This document shows positions 29,044 through 40,476 of a stretch of 64,000 bases of DNA, one piece after another. The position numbers and the translations under genes are program-made. This stretch comes from Syntrophales bacterium (GTDB lineage: Bacteria; Desulfobacterota; Syntrophia; Syntrophales; UBA5619), in NCBI GenBank assembly GCA_023229765.1, contig JALNYO010000001.1, positions 66,569 through 130,568 on the forward strand. Reading direction: 5' to 3'. The notes under the pieces are model-generated. The model was not told the DNA's origin. It saw only the letters and a program-made list of their open reading frames with translations, and searched no databases. How positions within the stretch are numbered: the first letter of the stretch is position 1; the number at the start of each line of letters is the position of its first letter.

Positions 29044-29093
29044 GCATCCCCCTTGCCTCTCCCGCTAAGGAAAGGCAAGGGATGCGATTTTTA
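29044..29093 (+). terminator. Hairpin terminator between the convergent dehalogenase and GcvH-like genes
   Basis: GCATCCC(cc)TTGCC-16 nt-GGCAAGGGATGC (12 bp with a 2 nt bulge) followed by GATTTTTA. Confidence 0.5.
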
Positions 29094-29909
29094 TGAGGCT
29101 TTATGCCGGGAAACAACTGAATCCAGAATCTGGACAAGCTGTTTTGAATTGATCGAACGGAGCAGGTCTATCAGGTTGGTTACCCGGGCGCCTCCATCCT
29201 GCATGGTGGGGCCGACTTGGGACGAGCTCATTTTCATAAGCGAGCATACCCTGTTGGAGATATCGTTTTCCTCCCGGTGTTTCCAGAAGAGCGCTTTTCT
29301 CCCGAAAAAGAGTTTTTTAAAATCGTTTTCGAGATTGTCCGGTTTGATCGTAACGAGCCAGCCATTTCCCTGCGGATCGGAGGTGAGCAGCCCCGGGTTG
29401 TTTTTAAGACGGTAATTGGTCGCGATAATGATCCCCGAAACGGGAGAAATCACCGGCAATACGTAATCTCCCTGAATAATGTGGGCAAAACATTCTCCAG
29501 CGCCGGTGAAAGAGCCCTCCGCGGGCAGGATTACCAACTGCACGTTGGAGATAAGCATCGTGATAAGTGAATCCAAACCGATCCGCACCTTTTCCTGGGT
29601 TTCCACCTTTACCCAGCAGTGATCAGGATGAAAGAGGAAGGAGCCGTTGTCGAGCTGGTATGACGGATCGTCGAAAAACGACCCCTCCTCTTCTATTTCC
29701 GATGATTCGGAAAAATTGCTGTCCCCCCCGTTTTTCATTGCGCGGTCGAAAGGGCAGGTCTCGCAGTGGTCGTTTCTGTCGCACAGCTTGTAGGATACGA
29801 GCCCTGTTTTCATCCAGACGCATTTGTTTTCTTCTGCTGGAATTAGGGGATAACTTTTGCACTTTGAGCTCATTGAATCCATCTCTGCACCTTTTATTCC
29901 TTCAAGCAT
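29091..29909 (-). CDS. GcvH-like (lipoyl-domain fold) protein with an N-terminal Cys4 motif and no lipoyl lysine
   Basis: C-x12-C-x5-C-x2-C (CVWMKTGLVSYKLCDRNDHCETCPFD), then an H-protein-like core HCWVKVE..VRIGLDSL...LP..G...SPVSGIIIATNYRLKNNPGLLTSDPQGNGWLVTIKP. The position aligned to the GcvH lipoyl-Lys is Asp. The C-terminal region carries VGPTMQDGG. Confidence 0.7.
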   Translation of the reverse strand: MLEGIKGAEMDSMSSKCKSYPLIPAEENKCVWMKTGLVSYKLCDRNDHCETCPFDRAMKNGGDSNFSESSEIEEEGSFFDDPSYQLDNGSFLFHPDHCWVKVETQEKVRIGLDSLITMLISNVQLVILPAEGSFTGAGECFAHIIQGDYVLPVISPVSGIIIATNYRLKNNPGLLTSDPQGNGWLVTIKPDNLENDFKKLFFGRKALFWKHREENDISNRVCSLMKMSSSQVGPTMQDGGARVTNLIDLLRSINSKQLVQILDSVVSRHKAS

Positions 29910-29915
29910 CTCTAT

Positions 29916-30611
29916 TTAAGAAACCAGGAAGAAATCTTTTACCAGCTTATCCCAGTTCTCCGGATCCATGTTTCTGGCAATGCCGTCCACCGGCACACCA
30001 CCATCCTGAGAAAGTGCTCCCAGGTTGTAATTTCCCCGGGCCAGAAGGCTGTCTCTGACGCCATCCATCCATTTTATGGCCAGATCTCCGGTCAGAAGAT
30101 TTTTCAGGTTGGATGAAACCCTCGGGGATTGAACCTTGATCAGCCAGGACTGCCCATAAGGATCGCTGTTTACCCCGGCGGGAGATTTCAGCAGGGCTTC
30201 GTTTACGGCAACTATTTTACCGTCAACGGGGGAGAGCATATCAATCAGTTTTGAGCCTACCTGCACGCTCCACCCCTTTTCTCCCTGGGCGACTTCGGCG
30301 CCAACCTGCGGAAGATTGATTGAATCTATTTTGCCGAGCATTTTCTGTGCGAAGTCATCCATTCCCACCTTCATGATGTTTCCTTCCTCGGGCGTCGCCC
30401 AGCTATGCCCCTGGTGGAAAAACATCCCCTGAGCCGGCATGCTGAACCAGTTGCCGATTGCCGAAACGGCGTTGGCAACTCCTTGGTAAACCGCCTCAAC
30501 GGGTCCTTTCAAAAAATTCCAGAACACAACAAAGGTAGCCAGCACCGCGATTATCACCAGATATTCAATGCCCTTGGTGGCGAATATGTCAACGTAGGTG
30601 AACCCTTCCAT
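29916..30611 (-). CDS. Membrane-anchored GcvH-like protein
   Basis: N-terminal TM helix IEYLVIIAVLATFVVFWNFL. The core is HQGHSWATPEEGNIMKVGMDDFAQKMLGKIDSINLPQVGAEV...SPVDGKIVAVNEALLKSPAGVNSDPYGQSWLIKV. The Lys is displaced by one residue from the lipoyl position (GSKL versus SVKA). The C-terminal region carries LGALSQDGG. Confidence 0.7.
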   Translation of the reverse strand: MEGFTYVDIFATKGIEYLVIIAVLATFVVFWNFLKGPVEAVYQGVANAVSAIGNWFSMPAQGMFFHQGHSWATPEEGNIMKVGMDDFAQKMLGKIDSINLPQVGAEVAQGEKGWSVQVGSKLIDMLSPVDGKIVAVNEALLKSPAGVNSDPYGQSWLIKVQSPRVSSNLKNLLTGDLAIKWMDGVRDSLLARGNYNLGALSQDGGVPVDGIARNMDPENWDKLVKDFFLVS

Positions 30612-30632
30612 TATATAATCCCCCTTTCTTTA

Positions 30633-31976
30633 TCAGGAACGTTTAGTGTTTTTGTCTTGTTCAAGCAGCACACCGCCGTCGGCCATCGTGACACCCAGGC
30701 CCGGGGCAAGCGCGGGAGCATTGGCTTCAGCTTCCATTTCCCTATCCTGTTCCACCGCCCATTGCGGGGAGTGCTTCAATATCGGCAGCCGATTTACGAG
30801 CCATCGGAAAACCCAGACCATCAAAAGGACGATCGACGCGGTAATGGTTACCTCCATCCAGGTCGGGATATACCGTTCACTAAAAGGCAGGTACCATTTG
30901 AAGGCAAGTATCGAATAGTCGATCCGGTTGAAGATCACCCCCGCCATGGTAATGTAGGCGGCAACCCGGATAGGCGTTCGGTTGACCTTTTTTACGCCCC
31001 AGGTGAACAGGGCAATCGGGAGAAGCAGGAAGCCGAACATTTCCGTCAGATACCAGTAGCCCATTCCGGTATTCAGAAGATTCCAGTGCTGGCCGTGAAC
31101 CAGCAGAATCACCTGCAGGAAAAAGTAAACGAACATGCCGACCGCGCAGGCCTTGCCCAGGTCGATCTCGATATTTTTCCATGATTCGCGATACTCCTCG
31201 TCAACCCGATCCTTGCCGAAGACGCGGAAGCTCAAATTGCCGATGAAGATGACTACGGAAAGCCCGGCGTAAATACTCGATACAAAAAACAGCAGTGGGA
31301 TGAATTCATTGTACCACAAAGGATGGACCTTCCATTTGGCCATCAGAAACAGCGCGCCTAAGCCGGACTGATGCAGCGTGGAGAGCGTAACCCCGAAGAT
31401 GACTGCGCCGAGGCTTACCGACATGAAGAACTTGCGCATCTTTCTCAACCCCAGCCATTCAGCGAAAGCCGGAGCCAGCTCAAAGAACTGCGCGATCATG
31501 TAGAGCAGGAAATGCCAGGCGATCAGAAACAGGACGGAATTGACGCCGAACTTGTTGCCAATGATCGGATTATAGATTTGCCACCAGCGTCCGCAATCGA
31601 GCAGAATTGCCCCAGCGTAGAACATATACGCCAGAAACCCATTCAGAACAGCCAGCCTGACTATGGCGTGATACTTTTCGCCTCCCAGCACGTAAACGAC
31701 AAAGGCGCTTACATACGCCCCTCCGGCGAAGGCAACCCCGACCATCACGATGAACCCGATCCAGATTCCCCAAGGGTATTCAGGGACTTCATGCACTACC
31801 GAGCCTAGCCCCATCGCGAGCCGGTAAATAACCAAAATGATGCCGGCAAAAATTATGGCGCCGGAAATGATATTAAACGGGGTGAGAACCTTCCCTTTCG
31901 GTTTGAATTCACCCTTCAAAAAAGTCAGAAGTTCCTTGAAGCTCTTTGTTTCCCGGTTAGTCGCTAAGCTGTTCAT
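30633..31976 (-). CDS. NrfD/PsrC/HybB-family integral membrane quinone-interacting subunit with a C-terminal tail
   Basis: 447 aa with about 10 TM helices, and translationally coupled to the upstream FeS gene (ATGA overlap). The hydrophilic C-terminal tail ends ...APGLGVTMADGGVLLEQDKNTKRS. Confidence 0.75.
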   Translation of the reverse strand: MNSLATNRETKSFKELLTFLKGEFKPKGKVLTPFNIISGAIIFAGIILVIYRLAMGLGSVVHEVPEYPWGIWIGFIVMVGVAFAGGAYVSAFVVYVLGGEKYHAIVRLAVLNGFLAYMFYAGAILLDCGRWWQIYNPIIGNKFGVNSVLFLIAWHFLLYMIAQFFELAPAFAEWLGLRKMRKFFMSVSLGAVIFGVTLSTLHQSGLGALFLMAKWKVHPLWYNEFIPLLFFVSSIYAGLSVVIFIGNLSFRVFGKDRVDEEYRESWKNIEIDLGKACAVGMFVYFFLQVILLVHGQHWNLLNTGMGYWYLTEMFGFLLLPIALFTWGVKKVNRTPIRVAAYITMAGVIFNRIDYSILAFKWYLPFSERYIPTWMEVTITASIVLLMVWVFRWLVNRLPILKHSPQWAVEQDREMEAEANAPALAPGLGVTMADGGVLLEQDKNTKRS

Positions 31977-32860
31977 CTCATCCCTCCCTCTTCAACTTTT
32001 ACTTTTGCCTTGCGTTTAGTTATCGTAGCTATCGCGCTCATAAAGGCGGGCCACAAAAGAAGTATGACAGGCACACTGTACAGGAAGCCTTTTGTATATT
32101 CGGGATAAGCTGTTGTTCCAATGTCGTTTCTGAATCCGATCTGCTCGAAAGGCACCGACGAGATGTACATATAACCGGTGCCGCCGGCCTCGTTTTCGCC
32201 GTAGATGTGGTGGTAGTAATTCTTTTCGTCGCCGTAAATGCGTCGGTTGGCTTCGTCGATCATCTCTCTTCTCGTGCCGAAGGTAAGTGCGTAGGCGGGG
32301 CACGCTTCCACGCAGGCAGGCTCCAGACCTTTCTGCGTCCGGCTGTAGCACATGTCGCATTTGTGCAGTTCCGGGAAGGCCGAATGTTCAAATTTCGGAA
32401 TGTCGAAGGGGCAGGACGTCATGCAGTAACGGCAGCCGATACAGTTGTCATTCCAGGTGACGGCGCCTTCATCATGCTTTTCCATCGCCTTGACGGGACA
32501 TGCCGAAACGCAGGCGGGCTGGTTGCAGTGCATGCACTGCTTCTTGACAAAAACCTCTCCTTTATCTGTTTGAAAATGGTTTACTGCCTCAAGCTGGTGC
32601 GCATTGGTGGTCCTTCTTTTGTCGAAAACGGAAGAATCGTCGATATTGGGAACTTGCAGGCCATGCGCCTCGGCGCACGCCTTTTCACAGCTCCTGCAAC
32701 CTACGCAGCGCGTCGTATCGACGAGCACTCCTACAAATTCTTTATCCGATACCGGGGCGCTTGCCTCCGCCTTTACCGGCAACAATGTGCCGGCCGCGCT
32801 TACGCCGATGCCCGCACCCACGCCTTTTAGAAAAGTCCTCCTGTCGATTCCCATAATCAC
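31973..32860 (-). CDS. Tat-exported 4x[4Fe-4S] ferredoxin-like subunit (NrfC/HybA/DsrO type) with a C-terminal TM anchor
   Basis: Twin-arginine signal IDRRTFLKGVGAG...AEA. Four cluster motifs: CVGCRSCEKAC, CMHCNQPACVSACP, CIGCRYCMTSCP, CDMC...ACVEACP. C-terminal helix LYSVPVILLLWPAFMSAIATI. Confidence 0.85.
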   Translation of the reverse strand: MIMGIDRRTFLKGVGAGIGVSAAGTLLPVKAEASAPVSDKEFVGVLVDTTRCVGCRSCEKACAEAHGLQVPNIDDSSVFDKRRTTNAHQLEAVNHFQTDKGEVFVKKQCMHCNQPACVSACPVKAMEKHDEGAVTWNDNCIGCRYCMTSCPFDIPKFEHSAFPELHKCDMCYSRTQKGLEPACVEACPAYALTFGTRREMIDEANRRIYGDEKNYYHHIYGENEAGGTGYMYISSVPFEQIGFRNDIGTTAYPEYTKGFLYSVPVILLLWPAFMSAIATITKRKAKVKVEEGGMR

Positions 32861-32998: not shown

Positions 32999-33232
32999 TT
33001 ATTTTTTCTCTTTCTCTTTCTCAATTGCAGCGCCGCCGTCGGCCATTGTTACGCCGAGCTGCCCTTTGAAAGCCACGGCATTAACCTCGCCGTTCCTTTC
33101 CCTGGTCCTCGTTAAGATGTCCATCCCCCTGGATATCGCAACATATCCTACAGACGTCATGGCGCCTATAATCCAAAACAGGGGCATGATTAAACCTAAC
33201 GCTAAAAGAATGATGATGACTGCTGTACTCAT
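32999..33232 (-). CDS. Small (77 aa) membrane protein carrying the LGVTMADGG tail motif
   Basis: One or two N-terminal TM helices (AVIIILLALGLIMPLFWIIGAMTSVGYVAI) and a tail ...KGQLGVTMADGGAAIEKEKEKK. The 9-aa motif is identical to the NrfD-like tail but is encoded with 5 synonymous codon differences. An RBS AGGAGGA lies upstream of the ATG. Confidence 0.65.
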   Translation of the reverse strand: MSTAVIIILLALGLIMPLFWIIGAMTSVGYVAISRGMDILTRTRERNGEVNAVAFKGQLGVTMADGGAAIEKEKEKK

Positions 33233-33364
33233 GGTGTCCTCCTTTTCTATGATTTCTCATTTTTGAGTGTCAATGTGCGTCCGCCGCTATTGAATTTTCC
33301 GTTCGACCCTTTTAGGCTTTGCTCAATCTCTATTCACCGTTACTTTTACCCTTTGCTTTCTGTT

Positions 33365-33381
33365 AAACAACATTCATGCCA
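33365..33381 (-). promoter_or_regulatory. Weak sigma54-like -24/-12 candidate for the redox operon
   Basis: The minus strand reads TGGCATGAATGTTGTTT against the consensus TGGCACG-N4-TTGCW, so the -12 GC is GT. It lies about 135 nt upstream of the small-protein ATG. No EBP gene is in the window. Confidence 0.2.
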
Positions 33382-33487
33382 GAAAATATAAACTTCTGAT
33401 AATAATTAAATTATAATGTCTAAACAGCAACTTATATTAATGCATAACTACTGGTAGAAGAACGCCGGGGAAGAGACATGCCAGATA

Positions 33488-33529
33488 CTGTTAATTATAT
33501 TTACATGCCCATGTATAAAATATTAACAG
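33488..33529. promoter_or_regulatory. 42 bp imperfect palindrome CTGTTAAT...TACATG-CC-CATGTA...ATTAACAG
   Basis: The outer 8 bp arms and the inner 6 bp arms are perfect inverted repeats, read directly. It lies in the AT-rich intergenic region upstream of the redox operon. Confidence 0.4.
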
Positions 33530-33706
33530 TATTTGTAAGCATCAGGGATAACAGGGTAATTATAAATATTATTAATTTCCCTTAAATATCAATGTATTAA
33601 ATAAATAATTTATTGTATCAAAATAAAATGTTGTTTTATGTCGTGTGGTTGGTAAGAAGAAGCCGTAGTTTCTGGAGGGGGCCAGCTGCTGCGTTACCGT
33701 AAAAAT

Positions 33707-33725
33707 GTGTTAAATATATTAACAC
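33707..33725. promoter_or_regulatory. Perfect palindrome GTGTTAA-ATATA-TTAACAC
   Basis: Read directly. It shares the TGTTAA/TTAACA half-site with the palindrome at 33488-33529. Confidence 0.4.
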
Positions 33726-33926
33726 TCGCTTCTCAGGCGCACCGGGCAGAGATGTTCAATCTCTCCAAGCTTTCTGGCTGATGGTGCGATCCCAGCGGTA
33801 TAATAAGCTGTTATAATAATTATTAACATCAACATCATACGGCTATTTTTTTCATATTGCCAGCCGGAAGGAACGGGAACTGCCGGTCGTTTAGAGCCAT
33901 CTGCAAATTACAGATGTCATTTACGA

Positions 33927-33954
33927 TTGACATTTCCTGCGCGACTGATAATAT
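33927..33954 (+). promoter_or_regulatory. Candidate sigma70 promoter of the mla operon
   Basis: TTGACA (33927-33932), a 16 nt spacer, then TAATAT (33949-33954). This implies a leader of about 190 nt before mlaE. Confidence 0.45.
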
Positions 33955-34148
33955 ACCGCCAGGCGAAATCGGCGACGGATTTTTGATATTAGCCTCAAAG
34001 CCCAAAGCAGGGCACAAAATAAGGGTGAAATTGCCACCCGGCAAAATGATTGGCAGGGAATATTGGGGTGTTACTTTAGGCAAACCTTTTATTAAATCGG
34101 CTCTGTACATGTATTTAAAAACAGATTGCCAATGATGGATTGCAAGTT

Positions 34149-35003
34149 ATGCTGAATAGAGAAGACATTCTAACGCCTGATAATTACGATGACCGTCCGG
34201 CGATCGTTAAACTGCTGACGTCCCCTTTTACCGCGCTTGGCAGGAAGGCAATTCACCTGGTGAATAGTCTGGGCGCATCGGGAATCTTTCTCTTTTTGGC
34301 TTTTACCGGCATTTTCCGCCCGAAGCAACTGAGCAAAATCCTCCATCAGATTTACTATATAGGCGCAAGATCCTTTGGCATTATCGCCCTTGTCAGCCTT
34401 TTTACCGGGATGGTGCTGGGACTTCAGTCCTACCACGCGCTTGTTCAATTTGGCGCCGAGGGGGCGCTGGGCACCCTGGTTTCGCTGACGCTGATCAGGG
34501 AATTGGGGCCGGTGCTTACGGCGATCATGATAACCGCCCGGGCCGGTTCGGCCATCACCGCGGAAATAGGGATTCAACGTATTTCCGAACAAATTGACGC
34601 CCTTTATACCATGCGGATCGATCCGCTGCGCTTTCTGGTCAGCCCCCGCATCGCCGCCGCCATTATCAGCTTTCCCCTCCTTACCGCGATATTTGATGTA
34701 GTCGGAATCTTTGGCGGCTATATCTCCGGGGTTCTGCTGATGGGAGCAAATTCAGCTTCTTATATTTATCGAATTCAGTCCAATACGGATATTGGCGATG
34801 TTGCCGACGGATTCATAAAGGCGATCGTCTTTGCCATCATCGTCTCCACGGTAAGCTGTTACCAGGGCTATTTCGCCCACATGCGCACTGATGGTCATGG
34901 CGCCAAGGCTGTTGGCCTTTCCACTACGGCGGCGGTCGTTCTGTCCTGCGTCTTGATCCTGGTTTCCGATTATGTAGTTACCTCCATTCTGATGGCTGGT
35001 TAG
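34149..35003 (+). CDS. mlaE: Phospholipid ABC transporter permease MlaE
   Basis: LGPVLTAIMITARAGSAITAEIGIQRISEQIDALYTMRIDPLRFLVSPR is the MlaE signature region. The ATG is at 34149; the ORF is open from TTG 34140. Confidence 0.9.
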   Translation: MLNREDILTPDNYDDRPAIVKLLTSPFTALGRKAIHLVNSLGASGIFLFLAFTGIFRPKQLSKILHQIYYIGARSFGIIALVSLFTGMVLGLQSYHALVQFGAEGALGTLVSLTLIRELGPVLTAIMITARAGSAITAEIGIQRISEQIDALYTMRIDPLRFLVSPRIAAAIISFPLLTAIFDVVGIFGGYISGVLLMGANSASYIYRIQSNTDIGDVADGFIKAIVFAIIVSTVSCYQGYFAHMRTDGHGAKAVGLSTTAAVVLSCVLILVSDYVVTSILMAG

Positions 35004-35007
35004 GATA

Positions 35008-36243
35008 ATGGCTGCCCCTTTCATAGAATTCAGGAATATAACCAAGAGATTCGGTTCGCTGGCCGTTCTGGAAGACGTCAATTTCCAGATTTACGAAGGC
35101 GAGGTAACAACAATCATCGGACTCAGTGGCTCGGGGAAAAGCGTCTTGCTGAAACATATAATTGGGTTGCTCAAGCCCGATAGCGGCATTATCTTGTTTG
35201 AGGGCAAACCCCTCAACGAGATGAGCAAGGGTGAACTGAAGAAGACCCTTTCCCAGGTAAGCTATATGTTTCAGGGGAACGCCCTTTTTGATTCAATGAC
35301 TGTTTACGAAAACATCGCCCTTCCCCTCCGGGAAACAACGAATATGACAAAGGCCGAAATAGACAAAAAGGTCTCGGTCCGAATAGAGCAGACGGAGCTT
35401 ACGGAAGCTGCTCAACGTTATCCTTCCGAGCTTTCCGGGGGGATGCAGAAGCGCGCCGCCTTGGCGAGGGTTCTGGTGACAGATCCGAAGGTCGTTCTTT
35501 TTGATGAACCTACAACCGGCCAGGACCCGGTGCGGAAAAACGCCATTTTGAGCATGATCGCCCAGTATCAGAGAAAATTTGGCTTTACCGCGATCCTTGT
35601 CAGCCACGAGATTCCGGATGTCTATTTTATCTCCAACCGCATTCTTGCCCTTTATCAAAAGAAGATCGTCTTTCAGGGTTCCCCCGAGGAGTTTGAGGAT
35701 TTCGACCATCCCTTCCAGACGGAGGTTATTCGAAGCCTGGAGGGGCTTCAACATGAACTGACGGGCATGTATTCAAAAAGGCAGTTCAAGATGCAGAATC
35801 ATGCGCGGATGAAGCGAACCGGGGAAGGGGACATATACGCCGTTCTTGTGCATACGTTGAGGGAAGATGATTCGACTGGCGGGAAAGAATCTCATGAGGA
35901 GGTTCTGAAGGGGATCGAACACTGTGTAGCTGAATACTTCACCGCCGCGGGAGGTTTTTCCACCCGTCTTAAAACGGACGAATTTGTTACGGTTCTTCCC
36001 TATTCCAATATAGCGGAGGCGGAAGACCTTGCCCGTGATTTTGTTGACTCCCTGAAGGTAAAAACGGGCGGGCGGGGGGGTGTAAGCGGCGCCGGACATG
36101 AACATGACGGCAAGGGCGGGAATTTTGCGCTGCTTACAGGCATAGCGGAGGGATTCCCTGCTGATGAGATAGAAACCGTTATAGCGTCTGCCCGGTCTCA
36201 ACAAAAAGAAACAACGCGTCTTCACTGTGATGCGAGGAGGTAG
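35008..36243 (+). CDS. mlaF: MlaF-type ABC ATPase fused to a C-terminal degenerate GGDEF-like domain
   Basis: The N-terminal ~250 aa carry Walker A GLSGSGKSVLLK, LSGGMQKRAALAR and LFDEPTTGQDP. The C-terminal ~150 aa read HELTGMYSKRQF...AVLVHTLRED...HEEVLKGIEHCVAEYF...STRLKTDEFVTVLPYSNIAEAEDLA...LLTGIAE. That follows the GGDEF-domain layout, with KTDEF in place of GGDEF. Confidence 0.8.
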   Translation: MAAPFIEFRNITKRFGSLAVLEDVNFQIYEGEVTTIIGLSGSGKSVLLKHIIGLLKPDSGIILFEGKPLNEMSKGELKKTLSQVSYMFQGNALFDSMTVYENIALPLRETTNMTKAEIDKKVSVRIEQTELTEAAQRYPSELSGGMQKRAALARVLVTDPKVVLFDEPTTGQDPVRKNAILSMIAQYQRKFGFTAILVSHEIPDVYFISNRILALYQKKIVFQGSPEEFEDFDHPFQTEVIRSLEGLQHELTGMYSKRQFKMQNHARMKRTGEGDIYAVLVHTLREDDSTGGKESHEEVLKGIEHCVAEYFTAAGGFSTRLKTDEFVTVLPYSNIAEAEDLARDFVDSLKVKTGGRGGVSGAGHEHDGKGGNFALLTGIAEGFPADEIETVIASARSQQKETTRLHCDARR

Positions 36244-36247
36244 TTTT

Positions 36248-36703
36248 ATGAAGAAATACACAATGGAAACGACGGTCGGCATTTTTATTGTTCTGGGCTT
36301 GATCATGATCGCCTATATGACAGTAACTCTTGGACATGTATCATTTTTTGCCGATGAGACATATCCCCTTTCGGCCCGTTTTGCATCCGTTACCGGGTTG
36401 AGAAAAGGCAGCCCTGTCTATATGCTGGGGCTCAAGGTCGGCCAGACGGAGGATCTTTCCATCGATCAGAAAAATCAGAAGGCGATTGTAAAGATTCAGA
36501 TTAATAAAGAGATACAGGTATATGACGATGCGATTGCCTCAATCAAAACAGAGGGTCTTATCGGCGACAGTTATTTGAGTATCGATCCGGGAGGTTCAGG
36601 GGAGCTGCTCAAGAGCGGCGGGGTGATCATTGAAACGCATCCGCCATTGGATATCGCCGATTTGATCGGGAAGTACGCCTTTGGCGATGTCAAGAAAAAA
36701 TAG
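36248..36703 (+). CDS. mlaD: MCE-domain protein MlaD
   Basis: N-terminal TM helix TTVGIFIVLGLIMIAYM. MCE core: SARFASVTGLRKGSPVYMLGLKVGQ...IKTEGLIGDSYLSIDPG. ATG 36248 lies 7 nt after GAGGAGG. Confidence 0.88.
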   Translation: MKKYTMETTVGIFIVLGLIMIAYMTVTLGHVSFFADETYPLSARFASVTGLRKGSPVYMLGLKVGQTEDLSIDQKNQKAIVKIQINKEIQVYDDAIASIKTEGLIGDSYLSIDPGGSGELLKSGGVIIETHPPLDIADLIGKYAFGDVKKK

Positions 36704-36733: not shown

Positions 36734-37330
36734 ATGAAAAGATTTGCTTTGATATTGTTTGGCATAATTGTCATCCTGTTTTTTTCATTTGCGGCGTATG
36801 CCGGGGCGCCGTTGGAAAAGCTCCGGAAGGATGTAACCGATGTACTCAATGTTTTAAAGGATCCAGCGAGAAAAGCGGAGTTTGCCAAAGATATAAAGAG
36901 TGACAAAATATTGCCTATTTACGCAACGATGTTCGATGATGTTGAACTTTCCAAAAGGGCGCTGGCAAGAAACTGGAATAATCTCAGCGTCCCCCAGCGT
37001 CAGGAATTTGTAAAGCTTTTCCGGCAGGTGCTGGAGCGGGCCTATGGCGATAAAATTGTCTCCTATAATGACGAAAAGGTTCTTTTCGACCGGGAGACGA
37101 TGCTCTCCGCAAATATTGCCGAGATTCAATCAAGGGTTGTTACCGCCTCCAAAGAAATCCCCGTTAACTATATGATGATCCAGAAAAACGGCGTCTGGAA
37201 GGTTTATGACGTGATTGTCGAGAATGTAAGTCTGGTGCAGAACTATCGAACCCAGTTCAACGAGATTCTCGCCAAAAACACGACCGACCAGCTTCTGGAA
37301 ATTCTCAGAAAAAAGATTAAGGAAAAATAG
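36734..37330 (+). CDS. mlaC: Periplasmic phospholipid-binding protein MlaC (Ttg2D family)
   Basis: Signal peptide, then ...FDDVELSKRALARNWNNLSVPQRQEFVKLFRQVLERAYGDKI, which is typical of Tol/Ttg2. Confidence 0.85.
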   Translation: MKRFALILFGIIVILFFSFAAYAGAPLEKLRKDVTDVLNVLKDPARKAEFAKDIKSDKILPIYATMFDDVELSKRALARNWNNLSVPQRQEFVKLFRQVLERAYGDKIVSYNDEKVLFDRETMLSANIAEIQSRVVTASKEIPVNYMMIQKNGVWKVYDVIVENVSLVQNYRTQFNEILAKNTTDQLLEILRKKIKEK

Positions 37331-37395: not shown

Positions 37396-38421
37396 ATGAA
37401 AATAACTGCATTTCCTCTATTACTGCTTGTTTTTCTCGCCATCGGCTGTGCCCACAGCCCAGTGCCCACTGCTTATCCAAACCAATCGCCTGCTCAACCA
37501 AAGATAGAGCAATCGCCGACTCCTGCCGCCAATTCAGAGGCCCCCTTTCAGGAATCAACCGGAGCAGCGGTTCTGTCGGCGCAAAAACGAGAGAGCGCTG
37601 AGACCGTTTCTTCAAACAGTGTCGGAGGCGGTTTCCCAAGTAATTCCAGCAGCGCCGATGCGGAGCTTGAGGGGGACTATCAGGAGCCGGAGGAGTTGCG
37701 CAAGCCGGGTGATTATCAGAATACAGATAATTCCGAAAAGAACGGCCAAGGGGAAAACGGCGAAAGATTAACCATTGCCGATCCGCTCGAACCTTTTAAC
37801 CGGGCGATGTTTCAGTTCAACGACAAGCTTTACTTCTGGGTGCTCAAACCGGTAGCCCAGGCTTACAAAAAGGTGGTTCACGAGGATGTCCGGGTGGTTG
37901 TCAAAAACTTTTTCTCGAATGCGGCCTTTCCGGCGCGTTTTGTAAATTGTCTGCTGCAGGCGAACCTTACGGGAGCCGCAAGCGAGGTCGGCCGCTTTGC
38001 CCTGAACACCCTGGTTGGATTTGGGGGCATGTTTGATCCCGCTTCCGACAAGGGGATAAATCTGGCGAAACACGGCGAGGATTTTGGGCAGACGCTGGGG
38101 TTATATGGAATCGGACACGGTTTTTACATCCATTGGCCCATATTCGGACCCTCGAGCCCCCGCGACACGATTGGGATGGCCGGGGACGGATTTCTCAATC
38201 CCTTTTCCTATCTCGATCAGTGGTACGAGTCGGCAGGAGTGGGCGCTTATGACAGGATTAATGACACCTCTTTCAGCATCGGCGATTACGAGACGCTCAA
38301 GCAGGCGGCTATCGATCCTTATGTGGCGGTGCGCGACGCCTATGTCCAGTACCGTTTCAACAAGGTGAAGCGCCGAGATGGATTCTACGCCCCTGCAAGC
38401 GGCGGAGAGCCCGAGCGTTAG
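37396..38421 (+). CDS. mlaA: Outer-membrane lipoprotein MlaA/VacJ with a long disordered linker
   Basis: Lipobox LAIGC, then about 115 aa of low-complexity S/P/E/N-rich linker, then the VacJ core DPLEPFNRAMFQFNDKLYFWVLKPVAQAYKKVV...GFGGMFDPA. Confidence 0.88.
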   Translation: MKITAFPLLLLVFLAIGCAHSPVPTAYPNQSPAQPKIEQSPTPAANSEAPFQESTGAAVLSAQKRESAETVSSNSVGGGFPSNSSSADAELEGDYQEPEELRKPGDYQNTDNSEKNGQGENGERLTIADPLEPFNRAMFQFNDKLYFWVLKPVAQAYKKVVHEDVRVVVKNFFSNAAFPARFVNCLLQANLTGAASEVGRFALNTLVGFGGMFDPASDKGINLAKHGEDFGQTLGLYGIGHGFYIHWPIFGPSSPRDTIGMAGDGFLNPFSYLDQWYESAGVGAYDRINDTSFSIGDYETLKQAAIDPYVAVRDAYVQYRFNKVKRRDGFYAPASGGEPER

Positions 38422-38744
38422 CTGAAATTGACATTATTCAGATAAGTGCCGAGCAATGAATTTCTCCCTGAACGTGATTTTTGCGCAATGACTTTTTCGC
38501 GGCCGCCCGCGCTGAGTATCCAATAAGGGGAGGCTTGTCAATGAATTTCAGTATTGCAAATGCTCAGGGGGCCCGCCTTCCGAAGGGCAGCCTCCGCCCT
38601 TCGGAAGGAATGGTTCGGTTAATGACAAAATAATAATCTGCCGCCTTGAACAGAGGTCGCGAATCTGATAGGGAAGCAAACCATGGAGGAATATTTTTAC
38701 CTGAAAAAAGCTTCTGTAAATCCTGCCTGGCCGGGTGGAAACCA

Positions 38745-39515
38745 ATGAAGGCGATTTTTTTGGCCGACGCGCATCTGAAGAGCGCCGCGGATGAAGGATA
38801 TAAAAAATGCCTGCATTTTTTCGATGGTTTGCATGGGCGGGGAGCGTCGCCTGGGGCGGAACGCGCAAACGGCAATAATGTTGATATAATTGTTATTGCT
38901 GGTGATTTTTTTGACTTCTGGTTCGAGCGCAAGGGCCGCATTTATCAGGAATTCCAGCCGATTGTGACAAGCATTAAACGGTTGAAGGAAGAAGGGGTAA
39001 GAATCTGCATCTGCGAGGGCAACCACGATTTTTTTCTCGCTGATTTTTTTGCCAGAAGACTCGACATTGAGGTTTATCCCGATGCCCTGGAACTTGCAAT
39101 CGACGGTCTGCGGGTCTTTGTTGCTCATGGCGATACCGTCGATCGGGAAAACCGCCGATATCTCGCCTTGCGGGGATTTTTCCGCAGTGCCTTCACCTAT
39201 CGCCTGCAGCAAATAGTCCCGCTGTCGCTGCTCTTTGCCATCGCAAGGTTAAGCTCCGGCCTGAGTCGGGGAATTACAGTCAGCGCCCAGGAACAGATAG
39301 TCGGAAAAATGCGCCTTTTTGCCGAAGAAAGATTCAGGGAGGGATTCGACGCCGTTATTATTGGTCACTCCCATGCCGAGACATTGGGGCAGGAAAAAGA
39401 AAACGGAAAGCAACGAATTTTTGCAACCCTTGGCGACTGGATAACGCTTTCCACATACCTGATCTGCGAGGACGGCCGTTTTTCCCTGGAGCGTTTCGAC
39501 CGGCGGGAAGAATGA
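38745..39515 (+). CDS. lpxH: Calcineurin-like metallophosphoesterase, LpxH-like (UDP-2,3-diacylglucosamine diphosphatase candidate)
   Basis: MKAIFLADAHL, IAGDFFDFWF, CEGNHDFFL, AHGD and GHSH are the metallophosphoesterase motifs in LpxH order. The ORF is open from 38646, but ATG 38745 gives the canonical N-terminus. Confidence 0.7.
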   Translation: MKAIFLADAHLKSAADEGYKKCLHFFDGLHGRGASPGAERANGNNVDIIVIAGDFFDFWFERKGRIYQEFQPIVTSIKRLKEEGVRICICEGNHDFFLADFFARRLDIEVYPDALELAIDGLRVFVAHGDTVDRENRRYLALRGFFRSAFTYRLQQIVPLSLLFAIARLSSGLSRGITVSAQEQIVGKMRLFAEERFREGFDAVIIGHSHAETLGQEKENGKQRIFATLGDWITLSTYLICEDGRFSLERFDRREE

Positions 39516-39579
39516 TGGGTTTACAACAAAGTTTTTTTGATTACGTCGTTATTTGCGTCTGTCGCAAAGGGGAAGAAGA

Positions 39580-40476
39580 ATGGCTTTAGTTTCCAAAGAA
39601 GAGGGCATGCACTACGAGGGGTATTGCATTCGGCCGCCCAGCGAGGCCGACAGCATCCTGCTGCAAGTCACGCTGGGGTGTTCCCACAATCGCTGCACCT
39701 TTTGCGGCTCCTATGGCGACAAATGCTTCGCGATCAAGGACGACAAGATCATCCAAAGCGATATCCGCTATGCTGCCCGGTACATGCAGGGCCAGGAGCG
39801 GCTCTTTCTGATGGACGGCGACGCCCTGATCATCCCCCAGAAAAAGCTGCTGGGAATCCTGGAGAAGATCGCGATGGATCTGCCCTGGGTGAAACGGGTC
39901 GGCGCCTATGCAAACACCAAGGGAATCAAACGGAAATCTGTCGAAGAGCTGAAAGAACTGCGGCAGTTGAAACTCGGCATCCTCTATTACGGCGTTGAAA
40001 CGGGCGACGACGAAATCAGGTCGGCCATCGATAAAGGCTCAACCGCCGCCCAGTGCATAGAGATGGGGCAACGGGTGAAGGAGGCGGGCATCCTGCTTTC
40101 GGTTACCGTTCTGCTCGGGATCGGCGGCGCTCGCCTCTCACTGCGCCATGCGCGGGCCACAGGCGAGCTTTTGAGCGCCATTGATCCAGATTATGTCGGG
40201 GCCCTGACATTGATGCTTACACCCGGAACGCCCCTGTACGAGGATTTTCAGCGCGGAACCTTCACGCTCCCCGATGAGGCCGGAATGTTGCGGGAATTGC
40301 GCGAAATGATTGCCCATACCAACTTGACGAACGGATATTTTTTCTCCAACCATGCCTCGAATTACCTGCCCGTGAAGGCCCGGCTTCCCGAAGGCAAAAA
40401 ACAGGCCCTGGCGCTGATCGATGCGGCTCTGCGCGGCGAGATCGGCCTGAAGCCCGAGTGGATGCGGGCGCTGTAA
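39580..40476 (+). CDS. Radical SAM protein (function unknown)
   Basis: CSHNRCTFCGS (CxxxCxxC), then FLMDGDAL and YYGVETGDDEI. ATG 39580 was chosen. Confidence 0.8.
   Translation: MALVSKEEGMHYEGYCIRPPSEADSILLQVTLGCSHNRCTFCGSYGDKCFAIKDDKIIQSDIRYAARYMQGQERLFLMDGDALIIPQKKLLGILEKIAMDLPWVKRVGAYANTKGIKRKSVEELKELRQLKLGILYYGVETGDDEIRSAIDKGSTAAQCIEMGQRVKEAGILLSVTVLLGIGGARLSLRHARATGELLSAIDPDYVGALTLMLTPGTPLYEDFQRGTFTLPDEAGMLRELREMIAHTNLTNGYFFSNHASNYLPVKARLPEGKKQALALIDAALRGEIGLKPEWMRAL

Follow-up and report, generated by a model that had tools for sequence, protein, structure and literature searches.

The window analysed here, a stretch of 64,000 nucleotides from a Syntrophales bacterium (contig JALNYO010000001.1), carries an operon for an Mla-type phospholipid transporter whose ATPase gene, mlaF, encodes an additional C-terminal domain of the GGDEF fold. 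The open reading frame (ORF) lies at 35008-36243 on the forward strand and encodes 411 amino acids, as a previous, sequence-only reading of this DNA had reported, and its product can be divided into three parts. Residues 1-233 (35008-35706) form an MlaF ATP-binding cassette (ABC) nucleotide-binding domain (NBD; Pfam ABC_tran PF00005, E=1.1e-35). Residues 234-253 (35707-35766) form a linker helix with the pattern HPF.(D/T)EVI.SLEGLQ.ELTG at the junction, and residues 254-411 (35767-36243, stop codon included) form a degenerate GGDEF-fold domain recognised by Pfam matches of its homologues, profile comparison, AlphaFold2 (AF2) modelling and Foldseek. The other members of the operon lie on the same strand: the permease gene mlaE at 34140-35003 (287 amino acids; Pfam MlaE PF02405, E=6.2e-75), mlaD at 36227-36703 (Pfam MlaD, E=2.8e-19), the gene for the periplasmic lipid carrier MlaC at 36734-37330 (Pfam MlaC, E=6.8e-43) and that for the outer-membrane lipoprotein MlaA at 37396-38421 (Pfam MlaA, E=1.1e-69, residues 128-320). 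MlaD is a short, E. coli-like MCE protein of 158 amino acids as listed, though translation may in reality begin further downstream, at an internal ATG that lies a few codons in. The five genes, in the order mlaE-F-D-C-A, are so tightly packed that there is no space for a further gene between them.

The NBD is complete. Its top NCBIfam match is MlaF PRK11831 (6.9e-57, model positions 7-236 of 270), and the MlaF motifs are intact, namely Walker A GLSGSGKS, the signature LSGGM (residue 142), Walker B VVLFDEP and the H-loop SHE. The methionine of LSGGM is typical for the NBDs of MCE systems that are Mla- or TGD-like (Kolich et al. 2020, PMC7367683). The PRK11831 score of 192.8 bits falls below the equivalog cutoff of 441, although this is the best-scoring family, so that on the strength of best match and synteny the protein is filed as MlaF-type and not as a strict equivalog. 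With its adjoining mlaE and mlaD, short MlaD, MlaC and MlaA, the system resembles E. coli MlaFEDB (PMC7367683), and the gene specifies the ATPase of a phospholipid transporter of the MlaFEDCA type. The PRK11831 match stops at model position 236 of 270, just ahead of the C-terminal extension of E. coli MlaF. From there the window protein runs on for about 176 residues, made up of the linker and the GGDEF-like domain (together, the tail) and not of a short handshake extension of the E. coli type. A complete MlaF NBD followed by an extension is thus what the sequence-only reading described, but the extension is longer than the roughly 150 residues it gave.

Identification of the tail as a degenerate GGDEF domain depends on its relatives. 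Searched alone, as the sequence-only reading had proposed, the window tail scores below threshold against Pfam GGDEF PF00990 (E=0.0044; 17.2 bits against a gathering cutoff of 23.8) and gives E=0.075 with GGDEF_2 (PF17853). As a single sequence it also gives weak matches to LapD and CsrD, its best in NCBIfam, within their degenerate GGDEF regions, and LapD (3pjw) is its top match in the PDB. A search with the tail returned 47 relatives with 40-75 % identity, all of them fragments of the same ABC-plus-tail protein. All 26 homologous tails examined match PF00990 individually at E<=0.01, the best at 5e-10, and a precomputed PF00990 match is present in many database relatives. When a profile of these 26 tails was compared with the PDB, GGDEF domains made up 28 of 30 matches with E<=1, SadC being first (5.6e-7), followed by DgcR, PleD, LapD and DgcB. 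The AF2 model of the tail has a predicted local distance difference test score (pLDDT) of 80 and a predicted template modelling score (pTM) of 0.78, and the top 50 Foldseek matches of this model in the PDB are all GGDEF domains (E down to 1.8e-7, template modelling score about 0.6). Since homologues, profile and Foldseek concur, the homology is solid at the family level despite the sub-threshold score of the single sequence, and the tail is a true homologue of diguanylate cyclase GGDEF domains in both sequence and fold.

The motif-by-motif correspondences drawn in the sequence-only reading are all reproduced by HMMER alignment to solved GGDEF domains. ELTGMYSKRQF (250-260) aligns over D.LTGL.NRR.F, T283 stands at the first Asp of DxDxFK, R320-L-K-T-D-E-F326 lies over R-Y-G-G-E-E-F, and LLTGIAE (375-381) lies over SIGVA. 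The clade of the window protein is a divergent branch, the core of which has a median identity of 38 % to other family members. Relative to the family consensus, this clade shows a three-residue deletion after D288 and a Gly-rich insertion, GGRGGVSGAGHEHDGKGG, predicted to be disordered, at about 350-371 (36055-36120), the disordered loop itself covering about 354-368. The same loop carries an 11-residue insertion in the relative P0023 and therefore tolerates changes in length. The divergence of the branch, together with the deletion and the Gly-rich loop, accounts for the weak stand-alone Pfam score.

What the tail has lost was tabulated over 79 sequences, with canonical positions mapped via an alignment to SadC and numbered as in PleD. 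The Mg2+-binding D327 is replaced by T, S or K, and D329, the second Asp of DxD, by E, S or D. Of the guanine-binding residues, N335 has become I, R or V and D344 has become Q (67/79). At the I-site, R359 is A in 72 of the 79 sequences and D362 is G in 78, so that where RxxD would stand, five residues upstream of GGDEF, the family has A-(I/A)-G-G and the window AAGG (313-316). The GG pair of the GGDEF motif (G368, G369) is variable at its first position and T, S, I or A at its second, and E370, involved in catalysis and Mg2+ binding, is N in 72 of 79 sequences and D in the window. GG(D/E)EF is accordingly KTDEF (322-326) in the window and ..NEF family-wide. Of the canonical residues only R366, E371 and F372 survive, and the loop matching the phosphate-binding segment is poorly conserved. 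Because catalytic, Mg2+-binding, guanine-binding and I-site residues are lost family-wide, cyclase activity, which the sequence-only reading had already judged improbable, is unlikely from the residues present, as are canonical guanosine triphosphate (GTP) binding and I-site binding of cyclic diguanylate (c-di-GMP).

In place of the canonical motifs, the family has an invariant signature of its own, F.AIGGFSTR...NEFVTVLPYS, AGIAQGQP and QQKEI.RLRC. Little or no variation is seen among the 79 species at about 30 positions of the tail, including F311, G315-G316-F317-S318-T319-R320, N324-E325, T328, L330-P331 and S333, and further towards the C-terminus G378, A380, G382, P384, A395, Q399-K400-E401-I402, R404 and C407.

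The fusion is widespread. A genome scan at one genome per species gave 192 loci with a relative of the tail, of which 80 were retrieved and examined. Going by the labels in the record titles, 43 of these loci belong to Syntrophales, Syntrophaceae, Smithella or Syntrophus, 28 to metagenome-assembled genomes (MAGs) labelled "Delta proteobacterium", two to Desulfatiglans or Desulfatiglandales, two to Thermodesulfobacteriota and five carry other labels. ABC part and tail share one frame in 80/80 loci, 78 of which encode full-length proteins of 413-425 amino acids. The gene order is mlaE-mlaF::tail-mlaD-mlaC(-mlaA) in every locus as far as the contig reaches. The gene directly 5' of the fusion is mlaE in all 78 loci reaching that far, and mlaD comes next in 79 of 80, locus L003 stopping at the tail; the position of mlaC is conserved across loci and that of mlaA in most of them. 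An identical protein has also been deposited from a Syntrophales MAG (MCK9362063.1), under the name "ATP-binding cassette domain-containing protein". A frameshift or assembly artefact joining two ORFs, the danger named in the sequence-only reading, is rejected on the basis of the single frame in 80 independent genomes and this identical deposited protein.

Database searches agree with the genome scan. The best 120 full-length matches are 374-430 amino acids long, 119 of them at 411-430. An exhaustive search with the tail profile against 1.84 billion representatives returned 99 proteins at E<=1e-10, and ordinary multi-domain GGDEF proteins show up only from about E=1e-9. The same search gave more divergent fusions of 411-412 amino acids, and the two of these for which the surrounding genes were inspected belong to mlaE-F-D(-C) operons. 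Within the family, no natural variant that is split or lacks the tail was found, apparent split genes having been checked. Two candidates for a stand-alone tail were rejected: P0191 is a gene cut at a contig edge, and P0222/L082 is a fused gene with a frameshift, because its tail frame holds the end of the NBD. In L082 (2131-3919), a divergent relative, the gene 5' of the frameshifted MlaF::GGDEF-like gene is not mlaE but encodes a cyclic nucleotide monophosphate (cNMP)-binding domain, which may point to regulation linked to cyclic nucleotides in this lineage, or merely to a different gene order. The union of tail and MlaF is a permanent one, present in at least 80 species-level genomes (192 matches) of Syntrophales, Smithella, Desulfatiglandales and related lineages.

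Selection acts unevenly along the protein. Over 890 pairs with unsaturated synonymous divergence, the median ratio of nonsynonymous to synonymous substitution rates (dN/dS) is 0.08 for the NBD and 0.26 for the tail. Between the window and its relative L001, dN/dS is 0.06 for the NBD, 0.008 (about 0.01) for the linker (residues 234-263) and 0.26 for the GGDEF core. As values of about 0.26 are clearly below 1, in the window clade as well, the tail is under purifying selection and has been kept by it. No other segment of the protein is as constrained as the linker, HPF.DEVI.SLEGLQ.ELTG. It is nearly invariant on both its hydrophobic and its polar face in the 79 sequences and is helical in both AF2 models, that of the tail alone and that of the full-length protein.

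Comparison with known systems helps to frame what such a tail could do. The best sequence and structure matches are canonical cyclases with a stalk helix (PleD, WspR, DgcB, DgcR and SadC), and in the tail, too, a helix precedes the start motif ELTGLYS.RQF, as coiled-coil stalks do in these enzymes. Unlike them, the tail has neither GGDEF/GGEEF nor the Mg2+- and guanine-binding residues nor the RxxD I-site. In keeping the fold while losing the catalytic motif it resembles the GGDEF domains of LapD, FimX and CsrD, which serve as structural or regulatory modules; those, however, belong to GGDEF-EAL signalling proteins and not to an ABC transporter ATPase. As the tail profile scores better against the active cyclases SadC, DgcR and PleD than against LapD, the tail falls outside the known degenerate sub-families. 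Among ABC proteins, MalK, the C2 domain of MetN and the TOBE-type domains of ModC and CysA likewise present a compact fold appended at the C-terminus of the NBD. Such importer domains dimerise under the NBDs and control, or modulate, their closure. Their folds are TOBE, ACT-like or similar, whereas that of the tail is GGDEF/palm, and for the tail dimerisation is predicted only.

A functional precedent is E. coli MlaF itself. Its extension, of roughly 25 residues, is for the most part an extended chain with a short helix at the end; it spans to the partner MlaF subunit and is essential. When it is deleted, a GCN4 dimerisation domain fused to the C-terminus of MlaF can largely make up for the loss (Kolich et al. 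2020, PMC7367683). The same study found a compact folded C-terminal domain in 122 of 379 ABC structures, typically regulatory and dimeric under the NBDs, and showed that the STAS protein MlaB is required for stable association of E. coli MlaF with MlaED. In the window, as in E. coli, an important element is appended at the same C-terminal point of the NBD, a point at which a dimerising module is largely sufficient in E. coli. The differences are that the E. coli extension is short and its MlaF needs MlaB, whereas here a linker helix and a folded GGDEF-like domain of about 176 residues in all are appended and the operon lacks a STAS partner. By having a folded domain directly C-terminal to the NBD, the window protein has the architecture of the regulatory and dimerisation class of ABC proteins.

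GGDEF domains with a preceding stalk helix pair as dimers. Taken together with the position of the tail and the GCN4 result, this suggests for the tail a role in dimerisation or regulation, as a C-terminal domain set where E. coli MlaF has its handshake extension, a proposal towards which we lean, if only slightly. A linker helix under rigid conservation and a pseudo-enzyme domain of the GGDEF fold would have taken the place of the short extension. The two tails of an MlaF2 dimer would associate beneath the NBDs, as stalk-helix and GGDEF units do in cyclases, and their pairing would keep the two ATPase subunits joined and bound to MlaE, which is the job of the handshake extension in E. coli. 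Through the invariant linker, the tail could further tune NBD closure in the manner of the MalK, MetN and ModC domains. The sequence-only reading had the tail replace MlaB as a regulatory or dimerisation module. Dimerisation or regulation is still the best reading of its role, we infer, but since the tail starts where the extension would start, it is better described as replacing the handshake extension and not MlaB.

Several observations weigh against a role in dimerisation or regulation of this kind. The full-length AF2 monomer is poor (pLDDT 57, pTM 0.36) and uninformative on the packing of the domains. Evolution of the GGDEF core is about three times faster than that of the NBD. The tail contains an invariant polar hairpin (S318, T319, R320, N324, E325, T328, S333) that, to judge from its residues, resembles a plain dimer interface less than it does a binding site and may serve a ligand or a partner protein. 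Other Desulfobacterota, as far as the published distribution table was covered, appear to do without both MlaB and the tail, and the tail is therefore apparently not needed for Mla function generally.

The polar hairpin brings in the strongest of the competing explanations, according to which the tail would be a sensor for c-di-GMP, GTP, guanosine tetra- or pentaphosphate ((p)ppGpp) or another small molecule bound in a remodelled pocket, gating the ATPase via the linker. In its favour, the tail preserves the GGDEF fold, known degenerate GGDEF domains can act as receivers (with LapD and CsrD the best NCBIfam matches of the tail), the hairpin GGFSTR...NEF.T.LP.S and the motif AG.A.G are invariant and rich in polar residues, and the constraint on the linker is comparable to that on a signalling helix. 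Known c-di-GMP receptors such as PelD and PopA use the RxxD I-site. In the tail, however, all canonical ligand contacts are lost in the 79 sequences, the segment corresponding to the phosphate-binding loop is poorly conserved, and literature searches gave no mention of such a protein, so that we regard a sensor of this type as a tentative and, on balance, unlikely explanation. Coupling of lipid transport to nucleotide second messengers, as the sequence-only reading had ventured, is disfavoured since the GG, Mg2+, guanine and I-site residues have all been replaced. If a sensor it were, outer-membrane lipid homeostasis would be tied to the signalling state of the cell. A related proposal centres on a new pocket formed by the GGFSTR...NEF.T.LP.S hairpin, the AG.A.G.P loop and the conserved C-terminal Cys, through which a cytoplasmic metabolite, nucleotide or redox signal would switch the MlaF ATPase via the linker. 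We consider it doubtful; if true, Mla lipid transporters would gain their first ligand-gated member and the GGDEF fold a new sensory role.

A literal replacement of MlaB by the tail, which would fold back or extend over to dock on the helical subdomain of MlaF, the binding site of the STAS protein in E. coli, and stabilise MlaF and its association with MlaE, is distinctly improbable. It draws on the dependence of E. coli MlaF on MlaB for stable association with MlaED and on the absence of a STAS gene. The sequence-only reading was right that the operon holds none: Pfam searches covered the operon and 10 small ORFs across the window, none of which encodes a STAS protein, and the 80 related loci, for which the Mla proteins of the window were the only basis of comparison, are as tightly packed and in the same order. 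Yet the tail has a GGDEF and not a STAS fold, it sits at the position of the C-terminal extension and not at that of MlaB, and the full-length model gives no confident docking in cis.

The phylogenetic distribution of MlaB points in the same direction. MlaEFD is the ancestral core, whereas MlaA, MlaB and MlaC are sparse and mostly proteobacterial (Grasekamp et al. 2023, PMC10665443), MlaB being sparse outside Proteobacteria generally. In the part of their supplementary table covered here, MlaB is 0 in every Deltaproteobacterium, including Geobacter, Desulfovibrio, Pelobacter, Desulfococcus, Desulfocapsa and Desulfomicrobium, which have MlaA, C, D, E and F (PMC10665443). The profile search, with its 99 representatives at E<=1e-10 in an output that carries no organism names, would place these MlaB-less genera among those that lack the tail. 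On that reading, the absence of MlaB is older than the tail and does not track it. The anti-correlation of tail and mlaB suggested in the sequence-only reading is consequently unsupported, as MlaB is 0 across the deltaproteobacterial rows covered, tail or not, and for the same reason these rows give no sign of selection for the tail through the loss of MlaB. Within the part of the table covered, the MlaB-less state of the operon is normal and not special.

It could also be argued that the tail is a decaying remnant of a cyclase, functionless and kept only since its removal would destabilise MlaF. The loss of all enzymatic motifs, the faster evolution of the core, the variable, disordered Gly-rich loop and the especially divergent window clade (core median identity 38 %) fit such decay. 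Conversely, dN/dS stays at about 0.26 inside the window clade too, some 30 positions are invariant or nearly so over 79 species, the length is steady at 411-425 amino acids over order-level divergence, divergent sub-families retain the architecture, and no natural tail-less or split variant was found inside the family, which makes a remnant highly unlikely. Finally, an assembly or frameshift artefact is refuted by the one frame in 80/80 genomes and the identical protein MCK9362063.1, and an active diguanylate cyclase by KTDEF or ..NEF in place of GG(D/E)EF and the lost Mg2+-binding Asp, so that the chance of either is negligible.

The surroundings of the operon offer further observations. MlaA has a lipoprotein-type N-terminus (...LAIGC) followed by a low-complexity linker of about 100 residues (about 20-125) rich in Pro, Ser, Gln and Glu, and the start points of tblastn matches to MlaA in related loci vary widely. 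Directly 3' of mlaA, at 38646-40476 on the forward strand, lie two genes, one for an LpxH-like UDP-2,3-diacylglucosamine diphosphatase (NCBIfam E=7e-25, below cutoff) and one for a radical SAM protein with weak similarity to HpnJ. The same pair is found 3' of the operon in the related locus L002, and the region 3' of mlaA suggests a lipid A or outer-membrane gene neighbourhood. On the 5' side of mlaE, a stretch of 870 bp (33267-34139) holds no convincing ORF and gave no match in an Rfam scan; it includes a good sigma-70-like site, TTGACA-16-TAATAT with TG, at 33927-33954.

Beyond this stretch, on the reverse strand, an ORF at 32999-33232 encodes a predicted membrane protein of 77 amino acids without a Pfam match, ending in ...LGVTMADGGAAIEKEKEKK. 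Two genes away, at 30633-31976 (reverse strand), lies the gene for an HmcC-like membrane protein of 447 amino acids that ends in ...LGVTMADGGVLLEQDKNTKRS, and the nine residues LGVTMADGG near the C-terminus are common to both proteins. The region 29091-32860 on the reverse strand contains genes for HmcB-like (Fe-S) and HmcC-like (membrane) proteins (E=2e-94 and 3e-107, neither of which reaches the equivalog cutoff). After them come two GcvH-like proteins in tandem whose N-terminal extensions are long, an unusual partner for a membrane redox module. Elsewhere in the window, at 1292-1642 on the reverse strand, lies a gene of the 23S ribosomal RNA (rRNA)-intervening-sequence protein family (PF05635, E=4.6e-34). 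Proteins of this family are four-helix bundles often found in mobile or defence contexts.

A literature search (MlaF/GGDEF, degenerate GGDEF/ABC NBD, Syntrophus/c-di-GMP) found no description of an MlaF-GGDEF fusion, and public annotation lists the protein as a generic ABC ATPase or as K02065. ABC ATPases with C-terminal regulatory domains and degenerate GGDEF pseudo-enzymes are both known already; it is their combination on an Mla ATPase that is new. With it, an ABC transporter ATPase joins the proteins that have recruited a dead GGDEF domain. For annotation, this means that a PF00990 match alone should not class these proteins as diguanylate cyclases or as components of c-di-GMP signalling. 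Assembly and regulation of MlaF are understood only for systems of the E. coli type, with MlaB and a short handshake extension, while most bacteria lack MlaB. The family described here parallels in nature the experiment with the GCN4 fusion, in that a folded domain is permanently attached at the same position and conserved across hundreds of genomes of anaerobic syntrophs, and it offers a concrete and testable model for MlaB-independent regulation of lipid transport.

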